Position numbers: made by a program. This document shows positions 24,001 through 27,000 of a stretch of DNA of 53,198 nucleotides, piece by piece. Numbering within the stretch: position 1 is the first letter of the stretch; every line of letters starts with the position of its first letter. Source of the DNA: Vulcanimicrobiales bacterium (lineage in GTDB: Bacteria; Vulcanimicrobiota; Vulcanimicrobiia; Vulcanimicrobiales; Vulcanimicrobiaceae); the NCBI GenBank assembly GCA_038215615.1, contig JBBQQR010000014.1, forward strand, positions 1 through 53,198, in the 5' to 3' direction.

Positions 24001-27000
24001 ACGGGTCACGCGAATAGGTGTACCTGCCGGAATGAATTCACCTTGCGTCAGCACGTCGATCCGCCGTCCGTCCACCGTTGCGACACCCGCCGGGCGAAGA
24101 TACGAGCTGGCCGTGCCACTTTGCCCGCGTAAGTGCGTGAGATCGCGGCTGGTGACGTAATCGGGGCCTTGCGCGCTTGCAAACGTGAGCCGCGTCATCC
24201 ACGCATTTTGCGGAAACGCGCGCGTCGCGAAATAGAAGAAAACGACCGTCAGTACAATGGCTGTGGCCAGCGTTTCCATCGCGATCGAAAAAAACGGCAG
24301 GCCAAAGGCGAGCAATATGGCTGCGAGCAGCGCGATCCCGCCAAGTATGCCCGGCGCACCGTGCCCCGGAACGATGTGCAATTCGTAGAGGATGCCGACA
24401 ACGCCCGCGATCGCCAGTATGACAACCCAGCCGTTGCTGAATCCCGCGTAGATGTGCGAGCCGAAAAACAGTGCGAGCGAGGCGACGCCGATGACCCCGG
24501 CTATGCCGTGCAGGGTCTGCATCTCGATGAGCAGTCCCAAAAAACCAAGCGTCAGGAGCAGACCACTCACAGCGGGATTGGTCGCGAAACGCGCCAGTTG
24601 TTCGGCAAACGTATATTGCGGAGTCTCCTGCGGGCCGCTCAAATGGTTCGCGGACAGCATCGCGCCCAGCGAAGCCGCCTGACCGTCGGCGATCTTCGTT
24701 TTGAGCGCGGCCTGCGTGTCGAGCGTCAAATTCTGTCCGGGCTGTTTGTACTTCGGAAGATCGATGCTCTTGTCGACCATTGCCGCGGCGATTAGGGGAT
24801 CGCGATGGTTGCGCTCGGCCGTCGACTTGAATTCGGCCTTCACCGCCGAGATGAGTTTGGAAGTAGCCGGGTAGGGCTCAGCCTCCCCGATCGATGCGCC
24901 CGGCGCCATGTAAATATGCTTCGCCGCCAGCGTGATGAGCGCGGCCGACGAATAGGCGCGTCCGTCCACGAATGCAAAGGTCGGGATCGAGGAGTTCAGC
25001 ACAGCATCGCGGATGTCGAAGGCGGCTTCGAGCACGCCGCCCGGCGAGTTGACGTCGAGCACGATTGCCGACGCGCCGCTGGTTTGCGCACTCTGGATGG
25101 AGCGCACGACGAGATGATCCATACCGTCGTCGACCGTCCCGGTGATTGGAATCACCACGACCGTTCCGGCGCTTTTTGCCGGCTGTTGTCCGACGGACGC
25201 TGAAAAGAGGCCGGCTGCAATAAGCCCGGCTGCAGCGAGCAGTCCCATCTTGAACCCAAGCATGCTTTTAGCTACCTAGGCCCTTCGCGAAGGTTACGGG
25301 GCTCTCTTCGTTTAGGCGAGTTCTTCGGTGACGATCTGGCGCACGAGGTTGCCGTCGGCTTGGCCCTTGAGCTGCGGCATCGCGACCTTCATGACCGCGC
25401 CCTGATTGCGGGAGCCTTGCGGCAGCTCCGCGATGATGGCGCGAACGATTGCCCGGACCTCGTCCCCGGATTTTTGCGCCGGCAAATACGCGGTCAGGAT
25501 CTCCCGCTCGCGCAGCTCTTTTTCCGCGAGCTCTTTCCGGCCGGCCTTTTCAAATTCGGCGGCGGCATCGGTGCGCTGTTTGACCTGCTTGCGCACGACG
25601 TCGGATTCGTCGGCGTCGGTCAAGTCGACTCCGGCCTCAGTCCGTTTGTAGGTAAAGCCCGAGAGCACCGACCGGAGCGTGTCGAGGCGGAGCTGGTCGC
25701 GAGCCCTCATCGCCTCCTTGAGATCGGCGGCAATGCGGTCTTTCAGACTGGCCACGAGCGACTAGGCGCGGCGCTTGCGCGCGGCCGCGGACTTCTTCTT
25801 GCGGCGGACGCTCGGTTTTTCGTAGTGCTCGTGCTTGCGCGCCTCGGCCAAGACTCCGGCTTTCTGGGTGGCTTTCTTGAAACGGCGCAGCGCGCTCTCG
25901 ATAGACTCTCCTGGAGCTACGCGTACTTCCATTATAATTCAACCCCCCTTTCAATCGAAGATCACTGCCGGGCCAAGCGGCCCAATAGGTGACTTTATCA
26001 CAGGGCCGCACTACAGTCAAAGCCACGGGAAATAGCAAGGCCCGTTGCCGTGAGGCCTCGGGCCTTGTTGTATCTCCGGCACGGTTCGCGCGTTTGAGTC
26101 CGTTTCCGAACCCCTACTCACGCCCGCCTCCGGTTCGACCTTCGCACTCCGGCACCGCACTTGCAGCGCCCTCAGCATGCTCGATCGCGGTTTGTTACGT
26201 TCCGCATTTCGTCGTTACTCGAAGTGATTGCATGGTATCAATTTCACAATTCGATTGCAATAGGTTTTGGACGCAACTCACAGCCATTCCACAAGAAACT
26301 GCGGTTGCTCACATCTACTCACATCTTATACACGTTTAGACTAGCCTGGCGGCCATGTCATAGGTCTTCCGGCGAGCACATGAACGTGCAAATGATCGAC
26401 GGTCTGTCCCCCGTCGGGTCCGGTGTTTACGACAAGACGAAAGCCCCCATCGTTCTTCGCGCCGAGCGCAGCCGCGGTTTCCATCAGCGACGTTATTTCG
26501 TCGGCGGATCCTTTAAATGTATGTTCCGCGATATTGGCTACGTGCCGCTCGGGAAGCACGAGCAAATGTACCGGGGCCTGCGGGTTCACGTCTTCAATCG
26601 CGACAATCCCGTTTTCGCGATGCACGATTTTCGCCGGAACCTCACCGGCCACGATTTTACAGAAAATGCAATCCTCGCTCATGACTTGGGATGCAGATAC
26701 TCAAAAGCGATGTGCGTGTCGGGACTTGGGACGAATCCGGCAATTGAGGACTTCACGATGACCGGGACCGTCGTATGCACGATTGGCAGCGCGGGGACTT
26801 GATCGTGAACCATGTCGTTGGCTTGATGATAGACAACCGCGCGGCCGGCATCATCGAGCGTCGTTTGCCCTTTGACGATCAGGCGATGGAACGCTTCGTC
26901 TTTCCAGAACGAGTAGTTCTGGCCGTTGGGCTTTGCCAGCGCGCTGTCTTTGTCGAGGAGCGGATAGAAGAAATTATCCGGATCTCCGTTGTCGCCGCTC

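Follow-up and report, generated by a model that had tools for sequence, protein, structure and literature searches.

A family of structured small RNAs in the Vulcanimicrobiales with DnaA-box-like repeats upstream of its promoters

The window analysed here, a 53,198-nt contig (C14) from the genome of a Vulcanimicrobiales bacterium (GCA_038215615.1, here G000), carries a 408-nt spacer (25933-26340) between two minus-strand genes, a HIT-family gene upstream (26682..26341; PF01230, 3.7e-21) and rpsU, which encodes ribosomal protein S21 (25932..25762; TIGR00030, 1.2e-23, and PF01165). What does this spacer encode, and what might its product do? An initial annotation had proposed an independent small-RNA gene, with a possible housekeeping role. 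New relative to that proposal are the genus-specific nature of the link to rpsU, a WYL-WCX gene lying tail-to-tail with the RNA, and arrays resembling DnaA boxes at the promoters.

A small-RNA gene upstream of rpsU

The spacer almost certainly contains a stand-alone gene for a real, independent structured RNA. As had been proposed, a minus-strand promoter, a structured RNA and an intrinsic terminator all lie within its 408 nt. The promoter (26260..26232, minus strand) combines a -35 element, TTGCAA (26260-26255), and a 17-nt spacer with the extended -10 element reported earlier, TG-n-TACCAT (26240-26232), a layout kept in all 24 copies first collected and also visible in 40 inspected upstream regions (of 80). 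The RNA itself, about 170-205 nt in size, occupies 26225..26030 on the minus strand as judged from a covariance model of the family (R1, 207.6 bits for this copy) and from RNA-library contigs; its 5' end is probably A26225, 7 nt past the -10 element, and its 3' end presumably falls at the U-rich tail. The terminator (26067..26030, minus strand) consists of a stem at 26067-26036, with a 9-pair outer and an inner 3-pair helix, and of this tail, which reaches 26030. The initial annotation had set the 5' start at 26233, and the present analysis sets it at 26225.

Separate from the RNA promoter, a promoter-like site for rpsU lies at 26020..25992 on the same strand (TTGACT, 17 nt, TG-n-TAAAGT), one such site being found where shuffled sequences led us to expect 0.2. 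Among the 9 other genomes of the genus, 8 have this spacer at 81-94% identity. Tandem arrays of two or three RNA copies also occur, and in these each copy has its own promoter and terminator.

The earlier report of matches in metatranscriptomes was likewise reproduced, with library contigs from three studies confined to 26057-26225. One contig has an adapter-flanked end at 26225, and contigs end at 26057 in all three studies, although such contigs give neither strand, ends nor level, and the libraries may include DNA carry-over. In run X5, a peat metatranscriptome, 654 contigs were found with a summed depth of up to 7.9e5, compared to 49-134 on the rpsU side, summed contig depth being a poor measure of RNA level. 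No cover of 26229-26700 was seen in four runs, which we do not take as proof of absence. The RNA is present in RNA libraries, and these data suggest that it is abundant.

Fold and covariation

The minus strand of 26233..26030 folds at -86.9 kcal/mol (z -3.91), a value matched by none of 200 shuffles; for the plus strand of the same interval z is -2.03, and 4 of 200 shuffles were equally good. Covariation was assessed on a MAFFT alignment of 80 copies that was fitted to no model (A3). In this alignment 79.5% of 4196 cells are paired, compared to 30-43% when the partners are slid, both-side changes are seen in 49 of 55 pairs compared to 28-35 when slid, and no covariation measure was reached by any of 500 shuffles. 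The covarying helices of the initial annotation, whose pair counts came from a model-fitted alignment, are thereby borne out on a model-free one. Five helices covary strongly among the 80 copies.

The RNA can be modelled as four hairpin domains followed by a constitutive terminator, all on the minus strand. P1 (26224..26207), a hairpin of five pairs, has 97.2% of its cells paired in A3 and a median pair probability of 0.98. The four-pair hairpin P2 (26205..26187) is likewise paired in 97.2% of cells, and its innermost position is taken by A-U in 37 copies and by G-C in 35. P3 (26186..26137) is built from a base helix, paired in 90.3% of cells and with both-side changes at all four of its pairs, and a variable distal part. 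Support for the rest of this domain on the MAFFT alignment is poor, with 67.7% pairing in the middle and 40-53% in the distal part, which is missing from short copies such as L024, L026 and L091. A kink-turn in distal P3 (GA/GA with a 3-nt bulge) was considered as a possible element and set aside, given the poor middle and distal pairing and the lack of the domain in some copies; no L7Ae gene was found in G000.

The long hairpin P4 (26133..26076) comprises a basal helix (P4a), a conserved part with two internal loops (P4b) and a variable part (P4c), and in the paralogue type of the window copy it carries a GNRA-type loop. P4b and P4c are paired in 96.0% and 91.3% of A3 cells, respectively, while P4a pairs better than its own shuffles in 59 of 80 copies (-9.3 vs -5.9 kcal/mol). 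The terminator is paired in 97-99% of cells with many both-side changes, and its pair probability, with a median of 0.98, exceeds 0.5 in 74 of 79 copies. Sequence conservation spans the whole RNA of about 200 nt, stems as well as internal loops, rather than one single-stranded seed. A conserved unpaired linker containing AUAC precedes the terminator and differs between the two paralogue types. A long-range pairing of the conserved UUGACG with CGUCAA or CGUCGA before the terminator fits many copies and, by eye, does not fit genus g1, and was dropped.

Distribution of two paralogue types

The RNA family consists of two old paralogue types. The diverged second copy reported earlier on contig C8 was recovered at 31443-31649 (plus strand), where it scores 142.1 bits with the covariance model and sits between one divergent and one convergent gene. 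BLAST within G000 missed this paralogue, which nhmmer and the covariance model both found. A covariance model was needed for the survey because BLAST reached only 11 of 80 genomes of the family. The absence of an Rfam relative was also confirmed, as none of the 4227 families of Rfam 15 matches 25500-26800 at E<=10.

The RNA is confined to one order of the Eremiobacterota/Vulcanimicrobiota. In a sample of this order, 111 of 151 genomes match at E<=1e-3, including 110 of 145 from the family to which most belong (f1) and, in whole-genome covariance searches, none of 5 from its sister family (f2); at least two copies are present in 80 of the 111 matching genomes. In a phylum-wide sample the same type of search gave matches in 52 of 70 f1 genomes, 0 of 2 f2 genomes and 0 of 79 genomes from 19 other families. 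The initial annotation had described the RNA as restricted to the order and present in the sister family. The restriction stands, whereas presence in the sister family was not seen in the whole-genome searches and emerged only from an unfiltered search aimed at the loci next to the WYL gene described below, where both f2 genomes searched in this way have full-length diverged copies (23.0 and 19.6 bits). Three true copies were also found on short contigs in genome bins titled as other phyla; these contigs look mis-binned.

Genomic neighbours

Only in this genus is the RNA followed by rpsU, and from genus to genus it adjoins rpsU or genes for an OPT transporter, a SpoIIE/GAF protein, MutS, a GGDEF protein or nadA. 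The ancestral locus is one in which the RNA lies tail-to-tail with a gene for a DriD/PafBC-like WYL-WCX regulator. Coordinates compared by hand show that in 36 of 53 RNA-bearing genomes less than 400 nt separate the end of an RNA copy from the 3' end of the WYL gene, always in convergent orientation, and overall the convergent WYL gene faces about 42 of about 80 RNA loci. In G000 the RNA terminator contains the stop codon of the WYL gene; the two genes overlap by 0-3 nt in this genus and are up to about 370 nt apart in others. Like the RNA, the WYL orthologue is restricted to the order, being present in 68 of 70 f1 genomes, both f2 genomes and none of 79 elsewhere. In G013 and G065, two family genomes with the orthologue, neither an RNA nor a promoter signature was detected beside it. 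Since hutH, on the other side, is likewise syntenic, the synteny with the WYL gene could be gene order inherited within one order.

The nearest solved structures to the WYL-WCX protein are DriD-type WYL domains and PafBC. As far as the available accounts go, single-stranded DNA is the signal that WYL regulators sense, at least one of them regulates neighbouring genes, and the ligands known for them are single-stranded DNA, not RNA; the available text of PMC6789036 describes the WYL and WCX folds as typical of RNA-binding proteins. The WYL regulator is the best candidate for a partner of the RNA, and we consider it unlikely that it actually serves as the RNA's partner or regulator.

DnaA-box-like arrays upstream of the promoter

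Just upstream of the -35 element lies an array of five DnaA-box-like 9-mers (26334..26274, minus strand), phased and in a single orientation, at 26334-26326, 26323-26315, 26313-26305, 26293-26285 and 26282-26274, with within-pair spacers of 1-2 nt. The array is present at the promoter of nearly every copy. Its proximal pair occurs in 78 of 80 copies; in 70 of the 78, the first aligned base of the RNA follows 46-47 nt further downstream. The 11-nt phase is kept in 74 of 76 pair-bearing copies outside G000. Across 79 upstream stretches of 200 nt, words of the form GTGNATAA occur 65 times in sense and never in antisense orientation, compared to a genome background of 1.5e-5 per nt. A position weight matrix for the proximal element, from which the copies of G000 were left out, gives the site in the window array a score of 36.2 and finds no further strong site in G000, the best after the two RNA promoters scoring 14.5; a shuffled genome reached 23.6.

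The phased four-box pattern occurs in G000 at exactly three places, both RNA promoters and a site 50 nt upstream of minC, compared to one match in 20 shuffled genomes. Because the RNA promoters themselves served to define this pattern, only the minC match is independent, and its score on the position weight matrix (13.5) is inside the shuffled-genome range. Across the order, TGTG-box pairs precede minC in the two-box form at 21 of 28 loci and in the strict four-box form at 7 of 28; one of the genera concerned has no detected RNA. The rpmH-dnaA spacer also contains two overlapping box words, one of them a full consensus box, together with a box pair of the same kind.

According to the available text of PMC11317965, E. 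coli DnaA prefers same-way pairs of TTATCCACA boxes 2-3 bp apart, a strong box combined with a weak one; taking from it the criterion of same-way box pairs at that distance, we find such pairs in the array. The proximal boxes match the DnaA consensus at only 5-6 of 9 positions, and clusters of fixed-consensus boxes (<=2 mismatches) did not single out the RNA promoters, which were distinguished by a relaxed 8-mer and the phased pattern. From the phased, single-orientation array we take the likely regulator to be DnaA acting as a transcription factor; that the array is a DnaA site is, on this sequence evidence, somewhat probable, and DnaA-box-like repeats just upstream of the promoter hint at a cell-cycle connection. 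The 11-nt phase would be explained just as well by a response regulator with direct repeats as its binding sites. Neither a DriD-type palindrome (consensus from PMC10853764) nor a RecA-NDp-like motif was evident by eye at the promoter.

Proposed function and alternative explanations

These observations lend themselves to a tentative reading of the locus as a whole, in which the RNA acts in trans, probably by binding protein, and is wired to DnaA as part of a replication, division or DNA-damage circuit. Transcription would start from the strong sigma-70-type promoter under the control of DnaA, bound to the phased box array upstream of the -35 element; the same kind of array precedes minC, and related boxes precede dnaA. 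The RNA would then act in trans on a protein as a decoy, scaffold or effector, the DriD/PafBC-like WYL-WCX regulator, tail-to-tail with the ancestral copy, being the candidate partner. Protein binding appears the most likely mode because conservation spreads over the whole molecule and not over one single-stranded seed, and we hold it at somewhat less than even confidence. A more specific version, which we consider quite improbable, is that the RNA, under DnaA control, is the natural nucleic-acid ligand or antagonist of the WYL-WCX regulator and mimics the single-stranded-DNA damage signal, thereby coupling replication initiation to division control, minC having the same promoter array, and to the DNA-damage response.

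The same conservation along stems and internal loops of the whole RNA weighs against a base-pairing, Hfq-type sRNA under cell-cycle control, which would pair with mRNAs through a conserved unpaired stretch such as the linker before the terminator or the P1 and P2 loops. Such an sRNA is a possible but less probable explanation. It would account for the stand-alone promoter and terminator, for the tandem paralogues, which many sRNA families have, and for the AUAC-containing linker that is conserved and unpaired yet differs between paralogue types. Hfq is encoded in G000, so that a base-pairing mode is conceivable, and the RNA has its own terminator with a U tail, but the tails are short and interrupted. 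A crude duplex test that ignored the RNA's own structure, run against the 5' regions of dnaA, minC, the WYL gene, orf445 and rpsU, yielded no consistent result across the two paralogues. That an sRNA can be wired to a master cell-cycle regulator is illustrated by CcnA of Caulobacter, as presented in the available text of PMC8959179. Separately, a CsrB/Rsm-type sponge for CsrA, which G000 encodes, was rejected because the GGA sites of the G000 copy do not fall in conserved columns of A3 (judged by eye, uncounted); the GGAG in the linker of the G000 copy is absent from the other paralogue type.

The remaining alternatives fare worse. The position of the RNA directly upstream of rpsU on the same strand in genus g1, the OPT transporter gene that follows it at a distance of 40-60 nt at 9 loci in two genera, its complex and conserved fold and a single X5 contig that runs from the terminator to the start of rpsU (25910-26064) would all suit a cis-acting leader or riboswitch, that is, an aptamer and terminator platform for the downstream gene, or, with read-through, a source of antisense transcripts against the WYL gene. 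However, the downstream genes (S21, OPT, SpoIIE/GAF, MutS) are functionally unrelated and their position is not constant, a convergent gene faces most copies, tandem copies each have their own promoter, and rpsU has its own promoter-like site. No antiterminator competes with the terminator, which exceeds a probability of 0.5 in the great majority of copies (74/79), and no riboswitch family of Rfam 15 matches at E<=10, so a leader seems very unlikely. Still less do we expect the DNA to be the functional unit, with the box array titrating or recharging DnaA in the manner of datA or DARS and the transcript a by-product or local modulator. Phased same-way boxes do resemble DnaA-oligomerisation arrays, and each genome carries two or three such loci, but the compensatory changes in five helices and the conservation along the transcript indicate selection on the RNA itself.

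The initial annotation had found no 6S RNA in the genome and suggested a possible housekeeping role, taken here as that of a 6S-like RNA that binds RNA polymerase in place of the missing one. Abundance and a size of about 200 nt speak for this, as does a whole-genome search of G000 in which RF00013 had no match. We did, however, identify a weak 6S candidate on contig C5 (71516-71700, minus strand), which matches positions 1-187 of RF00013, the full model; at 33.5 bits (E 3.8e-4) the match does not reach the gathering score of 46.4. The candidate is orthologous to weak 6S matches in 18 of 70 family genomes, and such orthologues coexist with the RNA in many genomes of the family. The argument for a 6S substitute fails because G000 has this full-length candidate, and the claim that no 6S RNA is detectable is not supported. 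A structure consisting of a row of hairpins, and not of a rod with a central bubble, adds to making a 6S-like role very unlikely.

Relation to known systems

True 6S RNA (RF00013) is likewise an abundant RNA of about 200 nt made from its own gene. It differs from the new RNA in having a closing stem, a central bubble and a terminal stem in place of four separate hairpin domains and a terminator; RF00013 has no match at E<=10 on 25500-26800, and the weak 6S candidate is a separate locus of the same genome. Other RNAs of this size, raiA-motif RNA and similar ones, are abundant, highly structured and lineage-restricted, and adjoin a translation-related gene without regulating it. The new RNA belongs to a different lineage from raiA-motif RNA and matches no Rfam model at E<=10, and we know of no DnaA-box promoter for raiA. 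In E. coli, the sRNA gene gadY is convergent to, and touches, the 3' end of the transcription-factor gene gadX, much as the RNA gene here converges on the WYL gene whose stop lies in its terminator in G000. GadY, however, is short and acts through the overlap, while the new RNA overlaps the WYL gene by at most 3 nt here, can be up to about 370 nt away in other genera and has a second copy elsewhere.

The available text of PMC8959179 describes CcnA as origin-located and presumably controlled by CtrA, pairing with the 5' UTRs of ctrA and gcrA. It too is a small RNA with a promoter apparently wired to a master cell-cycle regulator, and in both cases the proposed role links replication with later cell-cycle steps. 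The new RNA, with genes on C14 and C8, is not at oriC, the rpmH-dnaA spacer being on C5/C2, and its boxes are DnaA-like; it is set apart from CcnA by description and has no Rfam match. The closest parallel for the promoter is found in E. coli nrdA, mioC, polA and purH, where, in the available text of PMC11317965, same-way pairs of 9-mers 2-3 bp apart, one a near-consensus TTATCCACA and one weak, lie upstream of the promoter. The box pairs of the array are likewise same-way pairs of a near-consensus and a weak 9-mer, but here the target is an RNA gene with four or five boxes, and DnaA binding is predicted from sequence.

Should DnaA indeed bind the array, its regulon would include a structured RNA, possibly a new kind of DnaA target, and a literature search found no such case. 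The conserved pairing of the RNA with a WYL-WCX gene similarly offers a test case for the old proposal, as given in the available text of PMC6789036, of RNA binding by WYL domains. An abundant RNA with a conserved, complex fold and no known relative is present in a soil phylum that is widespread and barely cultured, and annotation of the order gains a 6S candidate, an RNA family model and a promoter motif.

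A discrete RNA gene upstream of rpsU

The 408-nt spacer between a HIT-domain gene (end at 26341, minus strand) and rpsU (start at 25932, minus strand) contains, all on the minus strand, an array of TGTG-type 9-mers (26334-26274) as its first element, a promoter (TTGCAA, 17 nt, TG-n-TACCAT) that ends at 26232, a structured stretch of about 200 nt, and a GC-rich hairpin whose U-rich tail reaches 26030. Beyond it, at 26020..25992, is another promoter-like site, for rpsU. Folding of the minus strand beats that of shuffled versions (z -3.91, with none of 200 as good); on the plus strand of the same region the advantage is less clear (z -2.03). 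The initial annotation had proposed an independent small RNA gene without an Rfam relative, and both parts of this proposal were borne out: the gene has its own promoter and terminator, its paralogue on contig C8 is flanked by one divergent ORF and one convergent gene, and a search of the spacer region against Rfam 15 at E<=10 matched no family.

Flanking genes were surveyed by Pfam scans of ~170 ORFs at ~80 loci. The commonest context, at ~42 loci, is hutH, a small ORF, the new RNA and then a convergent gene for a WYL+WCX protein; at 9 loci in two genera the order is instead nadA, the new RNA and a co-oriented OPT transporter gene. Further contexts include a divergent GGDEF gene, SpoIIE/GAF, MutS, DoxX and XdhC.

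Helices supported by covariation

The previously reported covarying helices were re-examined on A3, an alignment of 80 copies (chosen for less than 90% mutual identity, with both copies of the genome under study, G000, included), for which MAFFT was chosen to avoid a model-fitted alignment and the structure was derived from the G000 fold. The helices persisted: 79.5% of 4196 cells are paired compared with 30-43% when partners are slid, both sides have changed at 49 of 55 pairs (28-35 when slid), and the covariation score is 0.297, against 0.05-0.12 slid and 0.162 shuffled. None of 500 shuffles attained any of the pairing or covariation measures. P1 (97.2% of cells paired), the base of P3 (90.3%), P4b (96.0%), P4c (91.3%) and the terminator (97-99%) are solid, and P2 is also paired in 97.2% of cells, with one pair that is A-U in 37 copies and G-C in 35. 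The middle and distal parts of P3 (40-68%), whose variable parts MAFFT aligned badly, and P4a (18-49%) are weak on this alignment. The flanks of P4a nevertheless out-pair their own shuffles in 59 of the 80 copies (-9.3 kcal/mol vs -5.9 shuffled and -6.9 with the flank of another copy). Sequence is conserved along the whole RNA, in stems as well as internal loops, and the distal P3 domain is wholly absent from some copies.

P3 also holds a possible kink-turn (26144-26180, minus strand), consisting of a C-stem, a 3-nt bulge and GA opposite GA; its support on the alignment is poor, there are short copies without it, and a search of G000 for an L7Ae-family gene found none.

Two old paralogue types restricted to one order

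Spacer identity is 81-94% in 8 of the 9 other genomes of the genus, and of 80 other family genomes BLAST detected the RNA in just 11. Searching extracted loci with nhmmer added the paralogue on C8 and showed that copies can stand in tandem, three of them in G020 and two in each of G073 and G083. A covariance model, R1 (207 positions, 38 pairs), was built on 24 copies aligned with MAFFT; it scores the window copy at 207.6 bits and C8:31443-31649 at 142.1 bits, confirming the second copy. In a sample of the order, R1 matched 111 of 151 genomes and 29 of 45 genera, with at least two matches in 80 genomes; a few third matches are antisense terminator fragments. The initial annotation placed the RNA in most Vulcanimicrobiaceae and in the sister family, and in no other searched lineage of the phylum. 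The first and last statements hold (110/145 Vulcanimicrobiaceae in the order sample and 52/70 in the phylum sample; 0/79 genomes in 19 other families), while for the sister family whole-genome searches gave no match (0/5 and 0/2) and filter-free searching beside the WYL gene gave full-length diverged copies in 2/2 genomes (23.0 and 19.6 bits). The same filter-free search found two weak tandem matches in G033, from a genus in which none of 13 genomes had a whole-genome match. The full promoter-plus-array signature is present at one of these and at both sister-family matches; beside the WYL gene of G013 and G065, neither the RNA nor this signature was found.

An exact two-motif pattern searched in one genome for each of 185,579 species returned 32 loci, 27 of them under Eremiobacterota, Vulcanimicrobiota or Baltobacteraceae-type names and one titled "uncultured". 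Three others (L156, L167 and L180) are true copies, scoring 98-109 bits, on contigs of 4.4-15.7 kb whose bins carry the title Verrucomicrobiia or Acidiferrales. Because the WYL orthologue is likewise present in each of these bins (68% identity; directly adjoining the RNA in two), the simplest reading is that these contigs are probably mis-binned rather than transferred. The remaining locus, without an R1 match, is a chance match.

The two paralogue types differ at the P4 loop and at the linker preceding the terminator. They sometimes lie together in one tandem array beside the WYL gene, which suggests that the duplication arose there. Arrays of two or three RNA genes were seen at L029 (G020), L021 (G073), L027 (G083), L035, L048, L095 and L096, and every gene in them has a box array, promoter and terminator to itself. 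Three genomes flagged as unpublished contributed one row (L028) of A1 and A3 plus one context row (G037), one of the 111 order-sample matches (G147) and one of the 6S matches in family f3 (G265); no conclusion depends solely on them.

Synteny with a WYL-WCX regulator gene

The convergent neighbour encodes a 328-aa protein with WYL and WCX domains; among solved structures, DriD-type WYL domains and PafBC are closest to it. Its orthologues (E<=1e-40) have the same distribution as the RNA (68/70 Vulcanimicrobiaceae, 2/2 sister-family genomes, 0/79 elsewhere). Comparing coordinates by hand across the phylum sample, we found that in 36 of 53 RNA-positive genomes a copy stops no more than 400 nt from the 3' end of the WYL gene, always convergently, and that 8 more have one at a distance of 0.9-2 kb; in G000 the terminator of the RNA contains the stop codon of the WYL gene. 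Single-stranded DNA is described as the signal sensed by WYL regulators. Their folds, Sm-like in WYL and ferredoxin-like in WCX, have been noted as characteristic of proteins that bind RNA (PMC6789036). We regard the WYL gene as a lead to function, not proof, and hutH, likewise syntenic, is a counterweight.

Two further ORFs at the C8 locus, of 442 aa (L018:3666-4991, minus; co-directional with the WYL gene and upstream of it) and 168 aa (L018:1866-2369, minus; divergent to the RNA, with a signal-peptide-like start), had no Pfam or NCBIfam match and may be part of the same conserved block.

A promoter array shared in kind with minC and dnaA

Aligning the 100-160 nt upstream of all copies revealed a T-rich run followed by two TGTG-led 9-mers 2 nt apart. 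This pair is present in 78 of 80 copies and in 70 of these ends 46-47 nt before the first aligned base of the RNA. Farther upstream, in helical phase, come one or two copies of the word GTGNATAA, which is complementary to the consensus DnaA box TTATCCACA; 79 stretches of 200 nt hold 65 in sense and none in antisense orientation, where the G000 background of 1.5e-5 per nt predicts less than one. In E. coli, DnaA is described (PMC11317965) as preferring two boxes of the same orientation separated by 2-3 bp, of which one is usually strong and the other weak.

A position weight matrix built without the G000 copies scores the two RNA promoters of G000 at 36.2 and 34.3 and everything else at 14.5 or less (shuffled-genome maximum 23.6). 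The four-box phased pattern has exactly three matches in G000, compared with one in 20 shuffled genomes: the two RNA promoters, from which it was derived, and therefore a single independent match, upstream of minC. There, at C2:54542-54587 (plus), 50 nt before minC (C2:54638-55435; Pfam MinC_N and MinC_C), stand four phased DnaA-box-like 9-mers including one perfect relaxed box, at the same distance to a TTGC as in the RNA promoters. Across the order, 21 of 28 minC loci have the two-box pattern and 7 the strict four-box pattern, many with a perfect consensus box, and they include a genus without detected new RNA.

The end of C5 (130011-130151) and the start of C2 (1-141) share the same 141 nt; once joined, the contigs show the classical order of rnpA, rpmH, a ~745-nt spacer and dnaA. 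In this spacer, a likely oriC/dnaA promoter region, two box words overlap, one of them a full consensus box, and there is a box pair of the same kind as at the RNA promoters, its members separated by 3 nt. The spacer also has a short terminator-like hairpin ~30 nt after a TTGC.

Proposed circuit and alternative explanations

We infer that DnaA would be the factor acting at the array, that the RNA would work in trans on a protein, and that its circuit would concern replication, division or damage. Searches of a collection of open-access papers yielded no sRNA described in this lineage and no DnaA-controlled structured sRNA. The RNA might instead be a base-pairing sRNA, and G000 does encode Hfq; beside this stands the conservation that runs through stems and internal loops alike. 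A cis leader would be suggested by rpsU downstream, which adjoins the RNA in the genus of G000 only, and the terminator, whose predicted probability of forming has a median of 0.98 and exceeds 0.5 in 74 of 79 copies, gives no sign of switch behaviour. The locus could also be a DNA-level element that titrates DnaA, a reading to be set beside the compensatory changes in the helices and the conserved sequence of the transcript.

A 6S-like role had been raised on the claim that the genome has no detectable 6S RNA, and this claim did not stand. A whole-genome search of G000 with RF00013 found nothing, and the same search was positive in just half (7 of 14) of the control genomes. 6S was found in 57 of 80 phylum-sample genomes outside Vulcanimicrobiaceae, including 2/2 of the sister family and 9/9 of f3. 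Within Vulcanimicrobiaceae, 18 of 70 genomes have weak, full-length, sub-threshold matches, indicating that the Rfam model under-detects 6S there; many of these genomes also carry the new RNA. The match in G007, of the same genus, has an orthologue in G000 (83% identical), and a targeted scan of C5:71516-71700 (minus; L067:1565-1749) aligned RF00013 positions 1-187 at 33.5 bits (E 3.8e-4), below the gathering score of 46.4. With this weak, full-length 6S candidate the new RNA is not needed to fill a 6S gap.

Presence in RNA libraries

Part of the spacer occurs in 14 sequencing runs, 11 of them recorded as RNA. Contigs from four RNA libraries of three studies, compared with 25600-26700, fall on the new RNA, in agreement with the metatranscriptome matches first reported; such contigs prove neither strand, ends nor level. 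Runs X1 and X2 each gave one contig with at least 99% identity (26057-26213 and 26061-26208), and X12 contigs cover both the RNA and rpsU. X5 gave 654 contigs, mostly 90-99% identical and all but a few inside 26044-26228, with summed depth up to 7.9e5 on the RNA vs 49-134 towards rpsU, although contigs cannot prove level. Some contigs are bounded by adapter sequence at 26225, an A that stands 7 nt past the -10, and at 26057 in the terminator loop; the hairpin may have produced the latter ends during assembly. A peat-metatranscriptome contig of X5 (25910-26064; 152 nt, 14 differences) stretches from within the 5' half of the terminator as far as the start of rpsU, and could represent read-through, the transcript of a relative, or DNA in the library.
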